In this document: one piece after another, positions 11,166 through 64,000 of the stretch
How positions within the stretch are numbered: position 1 is the stretch's first letter
Layout: the number at the start of each line of letters is the position of its first letter
Assembly (NCBI RefSeq): GCF_006345805.1
Contig: NC_042997.1
Location: 98,332,001 to 98,396,000, forward strand
Length of the DNA stretch: 64,000 bases
Source of the DNA: Octopus sinensis
Lineage: Eukaryota
Direction: 5' to 3'
Position numbers and translations under genes: made by a program
Notes under the pieces: model-generated
Seen by the model: the letters and a program-made list of their open reading frames with translations, nothing else
Told to the model about the DNA's origin: nothing
The model's database searches: none

Positions 11166-11734
11166 TTTTATATATAGAGGGCATTATACATACATGCCAG
11201 AAGGCATTATACATACATGCCACACGCTAAGAGGGACAATTAGTCATTTCTACCAAAAATATTACTAATCCCACCGAATGCAATTTTTCAAAGTAAGACA
11301 TTTAAAAAATATAGACCTGTATCACAGTGATTTCATACTTACGTACTCATCAGCAGGCCTGAATGTATTATAAATAAACAACGACCCTGCCTCGCTTAAG
11401 CCGATCAGCTAACTGATCAACATCAACGAAGCACATGGGTGAGTTTACATATATTACATCCGGATAAATGGCAAACTTTTACGAATTGCATTTCGGGAGA
11501 GGAAAAGTTTTTTTCGGAATAAAAATTTAGCAATTAAAGACAACTACTTAATAAGGAAAACTTAACAAGAAATTGTCAGGTAGATAGCGTGAAACCCTCA
11601 TAAGAGAAAAAATTTCGAAAATAATTATTTCTTATTGAACATATTAATTGTATGTATAATGTATGTATAATGCCTTCTGGCATGTATGTATAATGCCCTC
11701 TATATATAAATTAATATGTTCAATAAGAAATAAT
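11166..11734 (-). mobile_element. Non-coding HHR-bearing retrozyme-like element, about 480 bp unit
   Basis: Internal HHR; the inverted segment 11659-11734 joins the unit end (11624-11649) to the unit start (11169-11218); (TA)n at left. Confidence 0.8.
11313..11360 (-). ncRNA. Type I hammerhead ribozyme
   Basis: Minus strand: aggcctg-CTGATGA-gtac-gtaa-gtat-GAAA-tcactgtga-TA-caggtct. Confidence 0.92.
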
Positions 11735-25699: not shown

Positions 25700-26930
25700 T
25701 GTCTTTAATAATCCCGTTTTATGATTAGATAGGGAAGATACGAACGCTAGAAAGGGCAGTACTGGAAAAGTAAATAATAAAAATGGAGCTAATAACTAAA
25801 TGTATAGTTACAAGAGAATGGATAGAAGGGAAATAACAAGTACTAGCACAAACAATATAACCGAAGGCGGTATCCAGAATGTAAGAAATCAGAATAGTGT
25901 AAATATCTTTTGATATAGAAAAACTAAGACAAGGGACATAAATATTCAAGTAAAAATAGGAGATAATAAAGAACTAGGTAGGGTTAATCACTGCGATTGA
26001 ACAAAACGAAAATTATGCCCATTAAAATTAAATTGCATAACTAAAGATTTGGTTTACATGGGCAAAGTACTTTCAGAAGAAGAGATATATTCCTACATAG
26101 GGTATAGTTCTAGTTTCATAAAATGTAGAAGAGCTAGTCACGAACTATCTTTTAGAGATAAAAATAAGAAAAATACGCACTTAAGTAAATTAATTTGGTC
26201 GTTAAAAGATATTAATAGAGCATACTGAATTACTTGGGATATAATTAGTAGGGCTAAACCCTATTGTAGAGGAAGCAAAAGCTGTGAATTAGTGTGTAGA
26301 GGAAATATAACAAATCTTTACCAGAAAATTTAATCTGATAAATCATAGGCAAGAACGTGCGCAAGATGTGCAAATACGTTTAAATATACTTTTAAGAAGT
26401 TTAAGTAAATGCATTACAATTACTACTAGAATTAGAATTAGAATTCAGCAAATAATGAACTTGAATTAAGTGAACACGTCTACAAATACAATTATATTAA
26501 TTTTCTTTGAAAAGAGTTGAAGAATGAAATTACATTTAATAAAATTAATGCTAAGAAGGATATTTAATTAAATATAACAAGAAAGTGATAAACCTATAAT
26601 TATAAAAATAAAAAATAAACCAAAAGTGTAATTCAATAACCCACACAGTATAAAAATACTCTTCTAAATTGGTAGAATGATGAGCTAGAATATAATACTT
26701 AGGAACCCACGAGAACCTTGACCTGCTTTGAAGACCACATCCAGCAATAAATAAACTGGTGGAGGTAAACTTCAGGTCACGAGGAAATACGACTATTTAG
26801 AGTAAAGTCAACACCTCTTAAAGGATCTACGCAGCTGAAACGTGCGTAGATCCAGGAGAAGAACGATGTAAATAATTGTATAATGAAATATGGATGCGCA
26901 AATTTCCGTTCTCATGATTTTCATTAATTT
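25700..26930 (+). pseudogene. Decayed PLE 3' part (GIY-YIG endonuclease plus 3' UTR)
   Basis: About 25990-26350 reads CPLKLNCITKDLVY...YIGYSS...HELSFRD..THLSKLIWSLKD..WDII.RAKPY...CEL. Confidence 0.75.
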
Positions 26931-35869: not shown

Positions 35870-37645
35870 ATCTAGTACCTAGTTTTTGGACTCTTCAAAT
35901 ACGTTTGTTATCGTAAATTTGATTAGACTTCTTCAGCTAGATTTACCTGGGCAATATTTCAAAGGTTGTTACATCAATACCAGTATACTCACCTGAACAC
36001 CTGGCCGTTAACAATAACGAGAACAGTGAAAATTGTTATAGAGGACAACAAACGTTAAAGCAAGGAAAACGTCTCAGGTCGTATACATTATTATTATTGG
36101 AAAAAATTGAAAACTTACAGCTGTTTTGGGGATATCCCTGAGTATGGGATATTCCATCATTGGAGTCAGATAGGGAAACTGAGAAGGGTATATATTAATG
36201 AAATGACGACATAAAGGACAAGAGTAAAGGAATGAGGAGATGAAAAAAGAGAAGAAAAAAGTAGCATAAGAGTTCAAATTTCCGATCTTGTTGATGTAAG
36301 TCCGTAAATCCTTAGGTGCACTCCTGCGTAAATCTATGTAGGTTAAAGTCCTGATGGCGAGCTGGCAGAATCGTTAGCACGCCGGGCGAAATGCGTAGCC
36401 GTATTTCGTCTGCCGTTACGTTCTGAGTTCAAATTCCACCGAGGTCGACTTTGCCTTTCATCCTTTCGTAGTCGATTAAATAAGTACCAGTTATGCACTG
36501 GGGTCGATATAATCGACTTAATAACTATGTCTGTCCTTGTTTGTCCCCTCTGTGTTTCTTTATTACCCTCTTGTGGGTAATAAAGAAATAGGTATTGTAA
36601 GAATCCAGAAATAGTCGTGAACATAACAGAATAGTACAGAAGGTGGCTATTAGGCGGTAAAAAGAAAGAAAAGTAAATAGGAAGAGAAGTAGAGAGAGAG
36701 TGAGGGAGGAAGTTAAGGATTGTCGTTAAGGATAAAGTAAGCTATATAAAAACATAGTGTACAAAAATAGCCAAGAAGATAAGAGAAGAGGAGGAGGATG
36801 TAAAAGAAGATAACGTAAAAAAACAAAATAAGCAAAATAATGTGAAATGAAAGGAATTTAAAGAGAAATGTAGGTGACAGTGGTATTCTAGTCAACAGGG
36901 GTTAGGGAGGAAATCTAGTAGTAAATAATTATGTTTGTTCTGGCTAAGGTCAGTGGTTGTAGAATTATTTTTAGCAATGTGGTTATGGGTATGTGGGTAG
37001 TGGTGAATGGAGAAGCTGGTTGAATGTTAAATTATTTAGGAGTAGGAGATAGAATTAAATATTTGGGAATTTATTAGGTTAAGATTTATAAACAAATTAA
37101 AGAATTAATATTTCGCTTATAAAGTGATGATGTAAGTGATGGAAGGGATATAGAAGGGTATGTATTAACGATCATGGAGGTTTCTATGTGGATGTTATTC
37201 GTGGGGGTGAATTTACATTGAGATTTATAGAAGAATTTAAAAGGAAGAAAGAATTTGTACTTACACTTTGTGAAGGCTTCGTTGTGTATATTAAGCAAGT
37301 GCGGTGAATTATAGGTTAACATTTTGAGTCCTTGCTTCTTTTAAGCAGAGTCCAAAAATGGAGTGCTGGCCCTTATATGGGATACCAGAGTCTGCTATAG
37401 CCAAGGAAAGTCTATATTGTATTTTCCCAATATTTAGATGGTGTACGTGGCTGGCTAGTGCTGTGGAATTGCTATTCTCTTTATATTTAAACGAGTTTAA
37501 ATGTGCATATCTTTGTTTAGAATTTATGGTAAATCCGATGTATAGGAATTATTTACTATGTTGTGAACGGTGCATTGGTATACGACGTTGAATCCTCTGC
37601 AATGAGCTTGCAGCGGGCAGTCTGTCCCGGATCTGCAGTTGCAGC
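35870..37645 (-). pseudogene. Decayed PLE 3' part (GIY-YIG, 3' UTR, decayed HHR at 35870-35942)
   Basis: Minus strand CNCRSGTDCPLQAHCRGFNVVYQCTV..LYIG..NSTALASHV; atctag-CTGAAGA...ccAAAAActaggTA-ctagat. Confidence 0.7.
36345..36597 (+). mobile_element. SINE family B nested in the PLE remnant
   Basis: Matches 17850-18085. Confidence 0.85.
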
Positions 37646-39889: not shown

Positions 39890-40450
39890 AGGTTAATCCA
39901 AACAAGAAAACAAAAAGACAACAACGCAAGGACGTGGAACAAATAAAGTATTATTGGACGCTCAGGAAAGAAGGGAAAAAGGAGGGTTTGACGTTTCGAG
40001 CGGAGCTCTTCGTCGGAAACATAGGAGAAGGAAAGATCCCGAGAAGGGAAGACAGAGGGAAAAAAATCGCTAGTGATACAGACGAGGTCACATACTAAAA
40101 GCCGGAAGTGGTCAGAGTAGAAGAAAATGTTTTTAAAAAACAGGAGAGCTATATCAAAGACGGAATGGTAAAGAAGGTGTGCGAAGATGACAAGTGTGTG
40201 TGTGTGAGTGTGTGCGTGTGTGTGTGTGTATGGCGAACAACACAGTAGCAGGCTAGTAGTAGAATTAAGGAGGGGTGTGTGGGTACACTAGCAGGTCAAA
40301 ATGGCAGGTCAAAAACAGGGAGGTATGCGTGTGTGCGTGTATGTATATGTATCGTGTGTGTGTTTTGTTTGTAGTATGTGTGTGTACGTATGCGTTTTTT
40401 GTGTGTATGCATGGAGTTTGGGTGTGTGGGGAGTAACTGTGCTTAACTTT
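39890..40450 (-). mobile_element. PLE 3' end (pLTR) with minimal HHR-like motif at 39986-40020
   Basis: gttt-CCGACGA-a-gag-ctccg-ctc-GAAACGTC-aaac; layout resembles 56370-56585; ends in (TA)n. Confidence 0.65.
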
Positions 40451-44732: not shown

Positions 44733-46325
44733 TTAAAAAGGAGATGTGGAACACGAGTTGTGATATATAAAAAAGGAAATGAAGAAAATGCTGACAAAAT
44801 AATTTAAGTAAGGGAGAGTGTATTTAATTAGGAAAGTTCTTTTTACCGGTTGCGCATTTGTTATGCTTATCAAAAGATATTTTTTTAAGTGAGATAGACT
44901 TCCTTTCTGATAGATTTTTTCTCTTATCTGACTTTATGTTGGGTTTGCTGTCTCTTATATGTGAAAAAAGAGCCTCTTTTTTCACATATAAGAGACAGCA
45001 AAAAATTTGGGAGTGCATTGATTGTTGTATTTTGAATGGTCAGTAGCAGCTAGCAGTTCATGAGAATATTTCTATTGAAAGGTTTGTTTATAGAATTTGC
45101 GTAGGTGTTATATTTTTTCCCTATATCTATATCTTTTTCCATTTCTAGCTTTGATGTTGAGCGCACACCCTCGAACCCCACTTCCCACCCTTTCACGTGC
45201 GTATGTATATACGTACGTATGCTCGTCAGTTGGTGTACCCAACTACATGCGCCTTTTTCCGTATGTATGTGTATATTGAGATATTTATGTATGTGAGCAT
45301 ATACGTATGTGGGTGGATAGACGGGCGGGATTTACATATGTACGTGTGAGTATATATTTGTGTGTATACAAGTGCGTGTGCAGAGGCAACTTAGATATAC
45401 ATACGTGGCGAGACGGATGTATATGCACACCCCTGTCGATATACTTTTACACGAGAGTACGTATGTATGTATGTATGCGTGTGGATGTGTATGCGTGTAT
45501 ATGTGTATATGTATCCATGCGTGTACGTATGTACATGTTGACCACTAGACAATTTACGAGGAAATTGATAAACGGTTTAACCACAAACCAGACAACCCTA
45601 ATTAACCATATACTGGATCTCCAGATTTTCTAGTTTATTTATGTTACCCGCCGCTACGCCCGTAGGCTTCTACAACCAGAATATGTCATCTTTCTGACCA
45701 CCTTGTTAGTTCTTAACCACTTTATATCCCTTATCCTTATATTCTTTTATATATTTTTATATTTTTTTATATCCTTTTATATTTTTTTATATTATTTTAT
45801 TGTTTTATATTTTTATATTTTTTATATTTCTATATTTCTAATTTTTATTTTTTTATATTTTTTATCTTTCGTCCTCAATTCTCGATCCTCTATCTTTATC
45901 TCTATTTATTTATATTACCAGGTTTTTTCACATTGTGTGTATTTATATATATATTTATTTATTTATTTATTTATATTACCTCAACATCCAAACTTCCTCA
46001 TTGTACATTGAGTGAAATACAGGATAGACGCTTCGTTTTTGTGCTGGTGCCCCACTATGTCGTACGCGACTGTGAGGATTTGCATCCCCAACGTAGAATT
46101 TATGATGTAATACATGTCCTTGAAGTAGTAATTGTGATTGTGCGCGGCTGAAGAAGGCCATAGACACACATTATGCATCGTCATAAATCCGTCTAATAAA
46201 CGCCCGAAACATATGTACCGTTGAATTCTTGGCATCATGTTTTTATTTTGTTTAATTTACTCCACCACCTACACCACCAAATGGTATATACAGGTGCTTA
46301 CAATTATCAAGTGCTCACCTTGAAT
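44720..46325 (+). mobile_element. Older PLE 3' part related to the 57459-61830 family
   Basis: 45950-46325 aligns with 61575-61950; the 5' boundary is uncertain. Confidence 0.7.
46144..46221 (+). ncRNA. Type I hammerhead ribozyme in a PLE pLTR
   Basis: gcgg-CTGAAGA-aggcc...cgccc-GAAA-catatg-TA-ccgt. Confidence 0.8.
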
Positions 46326-46349
46326 TTATATATATATATATATATATAG

Positions 46350-56585: not shown

Positions 56586-56674
<89 letters not shown>

Positions 56675-56682
<8 letters not shown>

Positions 56683-57301
56683 TGGCAGGGCAAGACTGCT
56701 AGGTAGTCGGCCGTATACTTGAAATAGATCATCAACGATCAAACTACATGTTAAAATTAATATTAATTTATCTCCCTCATTATTTAAATATTGAAATAAA
56801 TACGTTCTCTAGTAGCAAGCACTAACCGCAGTGAATTATTTACTGCAGTTCTTCGCTTCAGGAATTCTTTAGCGCGCCGGAACTAAGACATTTGAAATTG
56901 TATACCTAATGTAATCGGTAAGACTAAACACGTGTCTATTTTGGCACAGAAAGCTGGGGTTATTTCTTCAAATTTCATTTACACTGAACGATTGCACTGA
57001 TGAGGCAACGGACATTTGAATTATGTAAGTAATTCTTCTGTTAAAGGCCGAAACCGAGGTATGCAATTAATTCTGTTTTTTATATAAATTTGGTTCTGGT
57101 GTTCGCTGAATTTTTCCTCTAGAGAACTTTCTTTGTAGTTTGATCGTTGATGATCTATTTCTAGCACACGGGCGACTACCTAGCAGTCTTGCCCTGCCAA
57201 TATACACATATATTAGAATTTTCTCTGATTTCTCAGATTTTTTGTATGCTAGACTACTGGTTTTAAATTGATGTTAAAATAATATTAATTTATCTCCCTC
57301 A

Positions 57302-57307
<6 letters not shown>
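56675..57307 (+). mobile_element. Non-coding HHR-bearing retrozyme-like element, about 523 bp unit
   Basis: Inverted arm 56675-56748 versus 57134-57208; direct repeat at 56749 and 57272; internal HHR; (TA)n on both sides. Confidence 0.85.
56991..57067 (+). ncRNA. Type I hammerhead ribozyme with extended stem II
   Basis: attgca-CTGATGA-ggc-aacgga..gaatta/taattc..tctgtt..gcc-GAAA-ccgagg-TA-tgcaat. Confidence 0.9.
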
Positions 57308-57352
<45 letters not shown>

Positions 57353-57358
57353 TATACA

Positions 57359-57433
<75 letters not shown>

Positions 57434-57458
57434 AGAAAATGGATGTAAATAACACTTC

Positions 57459-60400
57459 GTACCGCTGAATCCTTCGCCTCATGTTTTTATTTTTATTTTT
57501 ATTTTGATCAATTTACTCCACCACCTACACCACCAAACGGTATACACAGGTGCTTATAATTATCAAGTACTCACCCCGAATTTCTACACTCAACTCACCT
57601 ACGTTGTCACTAGGATCTGATCCCACGCAACCGCGACAACCTTTAGTACTTGACGAACCCAAACATGAGGATTCAAAGGATTCACACAAACTTCTCCCCC
57701 AAGGACATACCTCTCCACTCCGACAAAACTTACACGACGACTCTCATCCACCGAACCACAGACTTTATTAGAAGAATTAGGTGGGCGGCCTACCATTTCG
57801 ATAACCCGGAGAAAAGCAACCCCAACTCTAACCAAGAAGAAATAGCACACAAGAAGATATTTAAAAGCAGAAGAAACCCACCCCCTAACTACGCACTGGA
57901 AAATTTTGAAAAAGACTTAATCGACCTCATTACCAACATCAACATTAGTAAACATAAGACCATTTCCAACACCCACTTAAGGAGCCTTAAAGATTTCCTG
58001 CATTCACTCAGGAACGACGGTAATCTTATCATACCCGCTGACAAGACGGGGAACTGGTATAGGCTAGACTACCAAACCTACAAATCGCTCATCATGAGGG
58101 AACTTAGCAAAAAGTATAAAACTACTTCTACGGATAACCTTAAGGAAATTAATTACAAAATCAAGGAAGTTATGAGCAAATTAGACCTCCTGGACAGAAC
58201 AGAACCTATTAAACCGCAAGTACCCAAAATTACTATTAAAGACCATAAGAAAGACTTCCCGGATAGTGTAGGAGTACGATTAATCTGTCCGACTAAATCG
58301 GATATCGGCAGACTTAGCAAGACCGTCCTGGACAAGGTGATCCCACACATCAAACCCCACATCCCACTCCAACTATGGATTAATACCAGCGATGTGCTAG
58401 AATGGTTTAACACTATCACCAATAGGCCCGACTACTCATTCATCCAATTCGACATAGCCAGCTACTACGCCAGTATATCCCCCATCTTACTTAACAAATC
58501 CCTTATTTTTGCCCGCAACCTTTCACTCATAGACAGAGAAAAAATTGACATAATTCTATTAGCTAGAAAAACCATAATAGAATTCGACGGTAGACTCTGG
58601 ACCAGATCCGATACCCCCGACAATTTCGATGTGGCTATGGGCTCGAGCGATTCAGCTCAGGTGACTGACTTGGTCGGGGCCTACCTGCTCAAGAAGCTTT
58701 TCTCCGAGGTACCGGATCTTCAGGGGGGTTATACAGAGACGACGCTCTCTTCATATCCCACCAACAATAGGAGTAAACTAGAAAGAATTAGGAAAAAGAT
58801 CAGGCTTTTTTTCAAATCCTTCAATCTTAAACTAGAATTTATGACCAATACTAAAATAGTTAACTTCTTAGATGTTACGTTAGATTTGAATAAGCACCTT
58901 CACTACCCATATAGGAAACCAGAAGAAACTACCAAATACATCCATACCTCTTCCAACCATCCACCCTGTATAATTAGCACCACAGTACAAGCCATCTCAG
59001 ACAGACTGACAAAACTATCCTCTAATAGAGAAATTTTCAATAATCATGCTCAACACTACAACCAAGCTCTCTATAGTGCCGGATATAACCAGAGAATATC
59101 ATACGTAGACCAACCGGGAGCGTCCGTCGACCATAAGACTCCCAATTATAATCGAACTCAGCACTCAACTCACACTACCGATAAGTCTAATTCAAACTCC
59201 AAACAACATATAGGAAATAGGCGGACTAATAGAACAGCACACAATAGTAACCCTCCCGACGAGAACAATATAGATCCTATTAGGAGAAACAGAAGGGATA
59301 ATAGTAGATTACGCAAATACATATGGTTCAACATACCTTTCAACTTAGCAGTTAGGGGTAGGTTATGTAAAAGAATATTCTCTATAATTTCCAACAACTT
59401 CCCACCCACCCACAAATATAGAAGTATCTTCTCCAACAAAACTATTAGGATTTCCTACTCTACCCTGCCCAACATGAGCTGCCTCTTAGCTAAACACAAC
59501 TATATTAATATTAGAACAGCTAGATCAAGAGCAAACCATAGCGACCAACAGAACCCCCCTCATCTAGACAGTAGGCATTATAACCAGACTGGCAACCATA
59601 ATACCCAAGCAGTTAGTAATAACACCCGCCGACACTACAGAGGAAATACTACACCCATCAACAACCAGGAGGTTACCAACGCCCCCACTCGTATTGCAAC
59701 ACCTCCGCCTAGGATTAGCAGCACACGACCGAATAATGCAATGCAATGCAACTGCAGATGTGCATCAGAGTGCCCGCTGCAGGGCGCATGCAGGGCAAAA
59801 AACGTAATATACTCATGTGAGGTGAGTACTCAATTTAACACACTCACCTATATTGGTTGCTCAACCTCCTGGAAATCCAGATACACAACCACCGGTCCTC
59901 GATGAGACATAGACATAAGGCTAACAGCACCTCCCTCTCTAAAAGAATTTGGGAATTAAAAGACAAATGCATAAGCTTCAAACTCAGATGGTCCATCATC
60001 GGATCAGCTGCACCTTATTTAAATAATAGAGCAGGATGCCAACTATGCTGTGTAGAACTCCTGAACATCTTGAAATTCAAAGACAAACACAATCTTATTA
60101 ACAAAAGGTCAGAGTTCAAACCATCCTGTATACATAAACTTATTAATACTTTAATACTACAATGCTTAGGTCTTATACCAACTCCCCCATGCTATTTCCT
60201 CCCACCCGGTGCAACCTGTCGGCTCAGCACATCCCGTTTTCCTATATGTGCGTGTGTATGTGTGTGTGTGTGTGTGTGTGTGCGTTTATGTGCACATACG
60301 CGTGTGTACATATACACATATATATATATATGTGGGCCACCTCCATCTCATGTTAAACTTTACAAAATTATATTTTTACCTTATTTTCTTATTTTATATT

Positions 60401-61830
60401 TTTTATTTTATTTTATTTTTATTTTTATTTTTATTTCTATTTTTATTTTTATTTCATTTTTATTTTTACTTTTATCCTACTTCCATGTATTTTTATTTTT
60501 AATTTTATTTTTACTTTTATTTTTACGTTTATTCTACTGCCATTTACTCTCATTTTCATTTTCATCCCTTACCTTAACTCTTATAACCCTTATAATTCTT
60601 ATATTTCATTTCTAACTATTACACTGTATTTCTTATTTTATACTGTATTTTTTATTTCTAATCTTTACCCTTACCCTCATTCTTACCCCTAATCTATCGA
60701 TTTACTCACCTATGGATCCGCCTTTTGAGTATCCGAGCGTCCGCGTACGTGTGTATGCGCATACATACATGTGCGCGCGCGTATGTGTACATGCATACTT
60801 CGATATCTTATGACTATACCCATGAGCGCGTGTGTCTCTGTGTGCGTATGTGAGTATATATATGTGCACGCACATACGGACACACAGCCGTGTGTGCGTG
60901 CGCGTATTAACATGAGTACGGGATTCTTTACATACGTTCTTATACACATCCTTTAATATCTTATACCTAGACCTAGAGACGTGGGCATATACGTGTACGT
61001 ATGTAGTGAGGGGCGCACGTATGTACATGTGAGCGTATACGCGCGTAATGTCCGTCTATATATGCGGATATTCTGTTGTATGTATGTGTGTGTGCGCGCA
61101 TGCGTGGGGTGCGTGTGGGTTTATGTACAGGTTTACACGCGAGTGCGTGTGTTTGCTTATAGACTTGGAGACGTATATGTACGCGTGTATGTGGGTGTAT
61201 GTACCCATGATGATATGTATGTACTGGAAGTCCATTTAATTCAAGGAACCAGATTAAACTCTCATCAGCTCTGATTTACGACGAAACCGTTAATTTACTG
61301 ACAGTTCTACAACTAAGTTTTATCAATCTCTGACCACCATGCTGGGTCCGCGACCTCTATACATCCCTTATCCCTACACTCTTTTACACTTTTATCATGT
61401 TTTTATCAGGTTCCTTTACCTCTTTTACTATTTTCCATTTCTATTTTTACTTTACAACATTATGCCTTTATACCCCTTTACATCTCCTTACAACTCTTTA
61501 TATCTTATCATCTACATTTATACATTTTTTTATCCCTCGTCCCGAACTCTCGCCCCTCCACCTTCACCTCTATATACGTATTTATTTATTTACATTACCT
61601 CAACATCCAAGTTTCCTCATTCTACATTGAGAGAAGAAGGAGATGGACGATTCAATTCGATGCTGCTGCCGTATTTTGTCGTACGGGAACGAGAAGATTT
61701 GCATCCCCAACCAAGAATTTCGGAACTAACACATGTCCTTGTGGAAGCTGTTGTGAGCGGCTGAAGAAGGCCACAGACATACATTATGATTTGTTATGTA
61801 TCTGTCTAATAAAGGCCCGAAACATATGTA
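57459..61830 (+). mobile_element. Young Penelope-like element, tandem copy 1 (possibly Naiad-type)
   Basis: 4369 bp unit repeated from 61828; RT plus C-terminal GIY-YIG; HHR at the unit junction. Confidence 0.9.
57550..60150 (+). CDS. PLE RT / GIY-YIG polyprotein (several 1-nt frameshifts)
   Basis: IIPADKTGN, FDIASYYASI, VAMGSSDSA, (GL)YRDD, VNFLDVTLDL, SNHPP, CNCR..CPLQGAC..VIYSC..YIG, TSLSKRIWELKD, CQLC..C.H; start and stop not fixed. Confidence 0.88.
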
Positions 61831-61835
61831 CCGCT
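61756..61835 (+). ncRNA. Type I hammerhead ribozyme at the PLE tandem junction
   Basis: agcgg-CTGAAGA-a-ggcc...ggcc-c-GAAA-catatg-TA-ccgct; predicted cleavage after 61830. Confidence 0.88.
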
Positions 61836-64000
61836 GAATCCTTCGCCTCATGTTTTTATTTTTATTTTTATTTTGATCAATTTACTCCACCCCTACACCA
61901 CCAAACGGTATAACAGGTGCTTATAATTATCAAGTACTCACCCCGAATTTCTACACTCAACTCACCTACGTTGTCACTAGGATCTGATCCCACGCAACCG
62001 CGACAACCTTTAGTACTTGACGAACCCAAACATGAGGATTCAAAGGATTCACACAAACTTCTCCCCCAGGACATACCTCTCCACTCCGACAAAACTTACA
62101 CGACGACTCTCATCCACCGAACCACAGACTTTATTAGAAGAATTAGGTGGGCGGCCTACCATTTCGATAACCCGGAGAAAAGCAACCCCAACTCTAACCA
62201 AGAAGAAATAGCACACAAGAAGATATTTAAAAGCAGAAGAAACCCACCCCCTAACTACGCACTGGAAAATTTTGAAAAAGACTTAATCGACCTCATTACC
62301 AACATCAACATTAGTAAACATAAGACCATTTCCAACACCCACTTAAGGAGCCTTAAAGATTTCCTGCATTCACTCAGGAACGACGGTAATCTTATCATAC
62401 CCGCTGACAAGACGGGGAACTGGTATAGGCTAGACTACCAAACCTACAAATCGCTCATCATGAGGGAACTTAGCAAAAAGTATAAAACTACTTCTACGGA
62501 TAACCTTAAGGAAATTAATTACAAAATCAAGGAAGTTATGAGCAAATTAGACCTCCTGGACAGAACAGAACCTATTAAACCGCAAGTACCCAAAATTACT
62601 ATTAAAGACCATAAGAAGACTTCCCGGATAGTGTAGGAGTACGATTAATCTGTCCGACTAAATCGGATATCGGCAGACTTAGCAAGACCGTCCTGGACAA
62701 GGTGATCCCACACATCAAACCCCACATCCCACTCCAACTATGGATTAATACCAGCGATGTGCTAGAATGGTTTAACACTATCACCAAAGGGCCCGACTAC
62801 TCATTCATCCAATTCGACATAGCCAGCTACTACGCCAGTATATCCCCCATCTTACTTAACAAATCCCTTTTTTGCCCGCAACCTTTCACTCATAGACAGA
62901 GAAAAAATTGACATAATTCTATTAGCTAGAAAAACCATAATAGAATTCGACGGTAGACTCTGGACCAGATCCGATACCCCCGACAATTTCGATGTGGCTA
63001 TGGGCTCGAGCGATTCAGCTCAGGTGACTGACTTGGTCGGGGCCTACCTGCTCAAGAAGCTTTTCTCCGAGGTACCGGATCTTCAGGGGGGTCTATACAG
63101 AGACGACGCTCTCTTCATATACCCCACCAACAATGGGAGTAAACTAGAAAGAATTAGGAAAAAGATCAGGCTTTTTTTCAAATCCTTCAATCTTAAACTA
63201 GAATTTATGACCAATACTAAAATAGTTAACTTCTTAGATGTTACGTTAGATTTGAATAAGCACCTTCACTACCCATATAGGAAACCAGAAGAAACTACCA
63301 AATACATCCATACCTCTTCCAACCATCCACCCTGTATAATTAGCACCACAGTACAAGCCATCTCAGACAGACTGACAAAACTATCCTCTAATAGAGAAAT
63401 TTTCAATAATCATGCTCAACACTACAACCAAGCTCTCTATAGTGCCGGATATAACCAGAGAATATCATACGTAGACCAACCGGGAGCGTCCGTCGACCAT
63501 AAGACTCCAATTATAATCGAACTCAGCACTCAACTCACACTACCGATAAGTCTAATTCAAACTCCAAACAACATATAGGAAATAGGCGGACTAATAGAAC
63601 AGCACACAATAGTAACCCTCCCGACGAGAACAATATAGATCCTATTAGGAGAAACAGAAGGGATAATAGTAGATTACGCAAATACATATGGTTCAACATA
63701 CCTTTCAACTTAGCAGTTAGGGGTAGGTTATGTAAAAGAATATTCTCTATAATTTCCAACAACTTCCCACCCACCCACAAATATAGAAGTATCTTCTCCA
63801 ACAAAACTATTAGGATTTCCTACTCTACCCTGCCCAACATGAGCTGCCTCTTAGCTAAACACAACTATATTAATATTAGAACAGCTAGATCAAGAGCAAA
63901 CCATAGCGACCAACAGAACCCCCCTCATCTAGACAGTAGGCATTATAACCAGACTGGCAACCATAATACCCAAGCAGTTAGTAATAACACCGCCGACACT
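61831..64000 (+). mobile_element. PLE tandem copy 2, runs off the window
   Basis: Near-identical to 57462-59640; contains GGLYRDDAL. Confidence 0.92.

Follow-up and report, generated by a model that had tools for sequence, protein, structure and literature searches.

A young tandem of a probably new Hydra-type PLE family inserted in a (TA)n tract

The window, by which we mean the whole 64-kb stretch of DNA analyzed, lies at G000:C1:98332001-98396000 and ends within a tandem that quite likely arose when two full Penelope-like retroelement (PLE) units, followed by a short tail, were recently inserted into a (TA)n tract (Table 1). Judged from its sequence, the tandem is young, probably intact, and part of a new Hydra-type family, and the PLE as such is unexceptional within a clade already described. 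The explanation that best accounts for the whole, in which we place good but not full confidence, is a young insertion of a Hydra-motif PLE comprising two units and a tail, produced by read-through target-primed reverse transcription (TPRT), with an ordinary 5' truncation and with frame breaks that would be assembly errors.

Table 1. Features of the PLE tandem, its junctions, and related elements (window positions)
Feature	Position	Strand	Basis or remark
PLE copy 1, one full 4369-nt unit	57459..61827	+	start 3 nt upstream of cut-equivalent position (57462)
Copy 1 ORF: RT, then putative GIY-YIG-type endonuclease; 4 frame-breaking deletions	57665..60169	+	unbroken copies L033, L036, L038
CxCX5C linker motif (CNCRCASEC), a Hydra-clade feature	59747..59773	+	sequence
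Extended 3' untranslated region containing microsatellite and T-rich tracts	60170..61755	+	sequence
Type I hammerhead: stem I of 5 bp, core CUGAAGA/GAAA, 51-nt stem II, palindromic helix III	61756..61835	+	predicted cut after 61830 (GUA)
PLE copy 2; ATG 62032, YRDD 63096-63107	61828..64000	+	runs on beyond window: another hammerhead, short tail ending in (TA)n (L031 329-4750)
4-nt filler between family X and PLE	57455..57458	.	junction comparison
Terminal 25 nt (3' end) of family X, another repeat family that targets TA; faces copy 1 head to head	57430..57454	-	27 exact genome matches to a 23-mer, 12 read
(TA)n tract common to small element and PLE insertion	57306..57429	.	sequence
Small non-coding element, 546-nt-unit family; inverted arm 56669-56748, main arm 56748-57308	56669..57308	+	hammerhead 56990-57068
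5'-truncated member of this PLE family, older and 78.5% identical, its long tail running into (TA)n	45952..46330	+	hammerhead 46144-46221

As the original prediction held, the PLE repeat starts at 57459 and again at 61828, with a period of 4369 nt, and its copies are nearly identical (99.36% across the 2181 nt comparable inside the window); over the whole unit they differ by 5 substitutions and 41 gap columns. Followed past the window into the neighboring stretch, the array consists of two full units, a 57-nt piece of a third, and then (TA)n. The hammerhead predicted between the copies, including its GUA cut, was confirmed by motif scans and folding, on which its identification is based, and self-cleavage is predicted; Rfam returned no hammerhead among 106 matches at E<=1. 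The hammerhead fold reaches -14.8 kcal/mol against a minimum free energy of -16.0 kcal/mol, and free folding is no better than that of shuffles (z -0.73), as expected for a weak helix III. The helix III palindrome is modeled as an 8-bp self-dimer (-7.0 kcal/mol), and dimerizing palindromic helices III are described for animal PLE ribozymes (PMC4209133). Further repeats surround the tandem. The right flank (L031 4770-4945) is the terminus of a further repeat, which has a CUGAUGA core and shares the TA tract; pieces of endonucleases from other Hydra-like families lie at 26016-26297 (+) and 37336-37643 (-), 31-58% identical in pieces to the PLE protein (P0001); and more hammerhead motifs, of other repeat families, lie at 2208-2617, 11313-11360, and 39986-40020, with close copies in L250, L294, and L299.

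The PLE protein contains the YRDD RT motif and the C-terminal CNC..CPL motif that had been reported, and the Naiad assignment drawn from them fails. Naiad elements are described as having an N-terminal endonuclease, DKA, CCHH, and no canonical hammerhead (PMC8557442), and the clade is ruled out here by the order of RT then endonuclease, DKT rather than DKA, the lack of CCHH, and the presence of a hammerhead. The Hydra clade is described with a C-terminal endonuclease, DKT, RWK, CxCX5C, no CCHH, a hammerhead, and (TA)n targets (PMC8557442); because of its domain order, DKT, CxCX5C, lack of CCHH, hammerhead, and TA targeting, the tandem fits Hydra by its motifs, set against the published clade descriptions. 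DKG is replaced by DKT (ADKT), as in 17 of 19 aligned relatives; RWA stands where 14 of the 19 have RWK, which also occurs in sister-lineage loci. The linker reads CNCRCASEC, and a single Cys and no CxxC are found between VIY and YIG, with CQLC..E..N..CIH around the conserved E and N. In the predicted structure (mean pLDDT 80.8), residues 1-490 have telomerase RTs as first matches, the nearest with Z 18.3 and an rmsd of 5.6 over 311 aligned residues, and the endonuclease motif VIY..YIG lies C-terminal to this fold at about residues 713-730. The endonuclease is putative and its assignment motif-based: PF01541 (GIY-YIG) is annotated on 2 of 120 listed homologues, P0001 itself has no Pfam match, and a Pfam search of the window frames and the alignment gave no RT or GIY-YIG family. 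A PDB sequence search gave 0 matches, and the organism names among the listed homologues are molluscs only. Two low-confidence inserts rich in Asn and Thr (P0001 487-550 and 629-693) are missing from most aligned relatives. At the family level the PLE-type features of partial tandems, inverted 5' arms, and a tail are all present. The 4369-nt unit exceeds the length of less than 3 kb given for Hydra, which is a tendency and not a defining rule (PMC8557442). A literature search, with most subscription journals and Repbase outside its coverage, returned no description of the present PLE family.

The tandem had also been proposed as a candidate driver of the small elements in the window, a proposal that keeps some force for the 546-nt element only, at the level of the family, through ribozyme kinship and a common insertion footprint. 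Likewise, the claimed resemblance of stem II to that of the small elements holds for the hammerhead at 56990 and not for those at 1759, 2343, 11313, and 40020. The 546-nt family (60 exact genome matches to a 28-mer) is tandem at one locus, has TA targets and inverted arms, and has end sites near +170 and +275. Its stem II resembles that of the PLE family with z 5.2-5.9 for the whole stem and 3.1-3.5 without the closing stem (2-7 of 3000 shuffles); with the window's own copy, the local score of the inner stem gives p 0.033. These values are suggestive of kinship, the shuffles ignoring hairpin symmetry. That a stem II is long and helix III short names no driver, because long open frames occur in three or more Hydra-like lineages of the genome, all of which have this shape; the two besides the present one have 61-64% and 43-45% RT identity, and the lineages were compared in a quick tree that contains no reference clades. 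The third (L281-L294) is a high-copy lineage with open frames up to 923 aa, in which the CxCX5C pattern is unmatched.

It is nearly an even prospect that the small elements were moved by one of these other Hydra-like lineages and that the 546-nt copy adjoins the tandem only through common (TA)n targeting. Both lineages combine long open frames with long-stem-II hammerheads, and blastn of the 546-nt element against the PLE unit finds nothing significant outside the ribozyme (best E 0.68). No dispersed near-identical 546-nt copies were found (median divergence 4.9%, nearest neighbor at least 1.6%, 26 loci), and the element predates the window's PLE subfamily, which is younger than the sampled PLE ends as a group (median 4.1%, 23 loci). 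Its body motif (1197 exact matches, absent from the PLE) is common to the 510-nt element (1373-2084), whose stem II is nearer to lineage 3. Against this, the 546-nt stem II resembles that of the present family and none of 6 hammerheads of the two other lineages (z <=1.6 whole, <=1.1 inner), its age overlaps the main burst of the present family, and none of 20 + 20 examined loci of the two other lineages is an autonomous element with the 546-nt element as its own end repeat; nor is any among 30 examined of the 1197 body-motif loci. Movement of the 546-nt element by an older subfamily of the present PLE family is a tentative reading, to which we would give somewhat less than an even chance. The 510-nt (1199-2084) and 546-nt (56669-57308) elements have a common body motif between end sites and different hammerheads, the 510-nt stem II lying nearest lineage 3 with z 3.8 (1 of 1000 shuffles, 24 comparisons). 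We consider it possible, if doubtful, that these are retrozyme-like elements with one common body and with ribozymes taken from different autonomous Hydra lineages, so that the ribozyme would mark the driver: the present family for the 546-nt element and lineage 3 for the 510-nt element. If so, an intact natural protein and a strict rule of one long and one short arm would provide a named enzyme-passenger pair for testing retrozyme movement. A 546-nt array elsewhere (L073 722-2647, G000:C10927) has GUG at the cleavage triplet in all units and is predicted to be uncleavable; A-to-I editing of a circular template could, speculatively, yield GUG, and the last partial unit, 3% different, speaks against a single template.

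All 30 sampled tails of the PLE family end in microsatellite, with the (TA)n insertion bias expected of the Hydra clade, a tail at one end of PLE insertions having been noted previously (PMC8557442). The 3' ends form two clusters after the cut, at about +35 to +55 (17) and +124 to +134 (13), and head-to-head arm pairs join one long and one short arm in 25 of 26 cases (one locus counted twice), the exception, L093, reaching +123 by blast. In PAc, a Poseidon element of Anolis, reverse transcription starts internally at two sites and uncleaved RNA is the main substrate (PMC11167929); by analogy, the two clusters fit both of these properties. The present insertion was likely made by target-primed reverse transcription that read through the ribozyme and did not stop there. 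In the sequence of events that we envisage, a Hydra-type endonuclease would nick the TA tract, reverse transcription would start inside the RNA at one of two sites (the short one at the present locus) and would copy 8.8 kb, the template being either a multimer that had escaped cleavage or a circle formed by re-ligation, and the 5' end would be an ordinary truncation, falling by chance at -3 and joined to a remnant of family X.

Family X (L189-L200) targets TA and has inverted arms and, by eye, a minus-strand hammerhead-like motif; one of its copies adjoins an endonuclease remnant 38% identical to P0001. Its 25 nt at the junction are the exact family X terminus and stand at the usual head-to-head place of the PLE family's own second arm, which would suit a chimeric double-primed event, with one target strand primed on family X RNA and the other on PLE RNA, the PLE enzyme having handled a foreign RNA. 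We consider this unlikely: both arms are apparently short-site ends (the family X sites being judged by eye), whereas true pairs combine a long and a short arm; no other clear foreign arm occurs among the 34 boundaries labeled in the cut and downstream sets; and a separate family X insertion trimmed by deletion suffices.

The start of copy 1 had been placed exactly at the GTA^CCGCT cut and could be read as the sign of a cleaved template. Neither part is supported, given that the match begins 3 nt upstream of the cut equivalent (57462), abuts a foreign element, and belongs to a family whose 5' boundaries do not concentrate at the cut relative to control positions. We used four search patterns, for read-through, for starts at -7 to +1, and for an upstream and a downstream control, with +2 and +3 outside their reach. 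Intact read-through junctions across the ribozyme number 1342 exact matches genome-wide. The start pattern gave 32 matches, of which 30 were examined and comprise 19 labeled boundaries and 11 indels or substitutions; the boundaries include 5 at +1, 1 at -1, and 3 at -2 after (TA)n, with the others at -3 to -7 and one an internal deletion, so that at most 11 starts, counting the 2 unexamined matches, are compatible with a stop at the cut. For the downstream control there were 18 matches and 15 labeled boundaries (3 being one duplicated deletion), with 3 at +5, 4 at +7, and 5 at +8, and the upstream control gave 67 matches, mostly one-base deletions, with 7 of 30 examined labeled boundaries, one wrongly. 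At all positions covered, boundaries number about 2 per base and show no clear peak at the cut, +2 and +3 being invisible to the patterns. Since 1342 read-throughs compare with at most 11 stops, a number similar to that at control positions, cleaved linear RNA would rarely be the integration template, and the start of copy 1 near the cut is probably incidental.

In the rival account of a cleaved template, the RT would have run to the cut end and jumped to further monomers, ending 3 nt into the last jump or at a chance match to GTA. In its favor, the boundary is no more than 3 nt from the cut once exactly two units have been copied, and +1 is the precise start of five family arms. In 3 of 26 small-element loci the start precedes the element's own cut by 4-11 nt. 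Of about 17 independent long copies, copy 1 alone has its 5' end near the cut, and chance would be somewhat unlikely to produce this. We find this account distinctly unlikely, as there is no excess over the controls, an estimated less than about 1.5% of junctions stop at the cut with pattern efficiency allowed for, and the 3 extra bases require a jump or a coincidence of roughly 1 in 64; the remaining cut-site starts are short arms ending by +146.

The expectation of a young element with a probably intact ORF was borne out, an unbroken 836-aa frame being present in 3 of 20 examined family loci (L033, L036, and L038). Copy 1 differs by 0.12% from L034, 0.85% from L033, and 4.3% from L038; dN/dS is 0.18-0.19 against L038, comparing intact copies, and 0.35 between the two closest copies. 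With the natural unbroken copy L033 as reference, the frame is broken 4 times in copy 1 (by two 1-nt and two 2-nt deletions, near 58729, 58752, 59884, and 60152) and 8 times in copy 2, with no break common to both. The earlier claim that the frameshifts fall at different positions is therefore correct, the claimed size of 1 nt is not correct throughout, and their placement in homopolymers depends on definition: 9 of 12 events touch a run of at least 2, 6 of 12 a run of at least 3, and 3 of 12 lie outside any run. Short-read contigs, which pool all family copies, contain the missing letters at all four copy-1 sites in runs X2, X3, and X9, and at two of these sites plus a loose end in run X1. 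Because all 15 gap columns at the frame breaks of both copies are deletions, none is shared, and three other loci have an unbroken 836-aa ORF, the breaks are very probably assembly errors. We give little probability to genuine deletions that would leave both copies dead, for which the events outside any run and the lack of locus specificity of the contigs might speak, given that 12 deletion events against at most 5 substitutions would be an abnormal mutation spectrum and that one-base deletions recur across the family in the present assembly.

A second unit that arose through duplication, whether in the assembly or later in the DNA of the locus, is similarly improbable, as the unit junction is a normal head-to-tail junction, the flanks are not duplicated, and two-hammerhead tandems occur at other loci and in other lineages (L038, L047, L238, L241, and L286), even though the copies differ by so few substitutions alongside their gap columns and the assembly is error-prone in this family and contains a similar type of duplication that includes flanks (L032/L033). 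At that locus (G000:C19:25715109-25725090) an entire insertion occurs twice together with its flanks, with a period of 5333 nt, and the frame is unbroken in one copy and has one deletion in the other.

Among the closest known systems, the Hydra clade, including Hydra-1_Obim, has in common with the tandem an RT followed by a GIY-YIG-type endonuclease (putative in the tandem), DKT, CxCX5C, no CCHH, CxxC and CxH around the conserved E and N, a hammerhead, and a (TA)n target (PMC8557442). The present family differs in its 4.37-kb unit, RWA rather than RWK, two low-complexity protein inserts, and a 51-nt stem II where those of the clade are short. The cephalopod family Hydra-1_oBim is listed with a hammerhead motif (PMC8557442 supplement) that is unlike the present one, which indicates a different family. 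With Naiad the tandem has in common a PLE-type RT, tandem and inverted insertions, and the (TA)n bias (PMC8557442). Like PAc, the family would have two internal RT starts that define the tail, and it shows an AT-rich target and read-through of the hammerhead (PMC11167929); PAc belongs to another clade and its ORF starts within the ribozyme, in contrast to about 200 nt past the cut here, and the present family is known from genome sequence alone. The 1342 read-throughs against at most 11 stops offer genomic support for the view that cleaved RNA rarely serves as template, as in vitro for another PLE. The 546-nt element resembles the metazoan non-LTR retrozymes in being non-coding, tandem, and equipped with a type I hammerhead; mobilization of retrozymes by PLEs is, in the sources cited here, proposed and not shown (PMC7229834; bioRxiv 10.64898/2026.07.22.740005). 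Xenopus retrozymes match PLE end repeats, whereas the 546-nt element shows kinship in stem II only. A PLE family that is young, retains intact ORFs, and has a passenger related through the ribozyme provides material for testing PLE mobilization of retrozymes.
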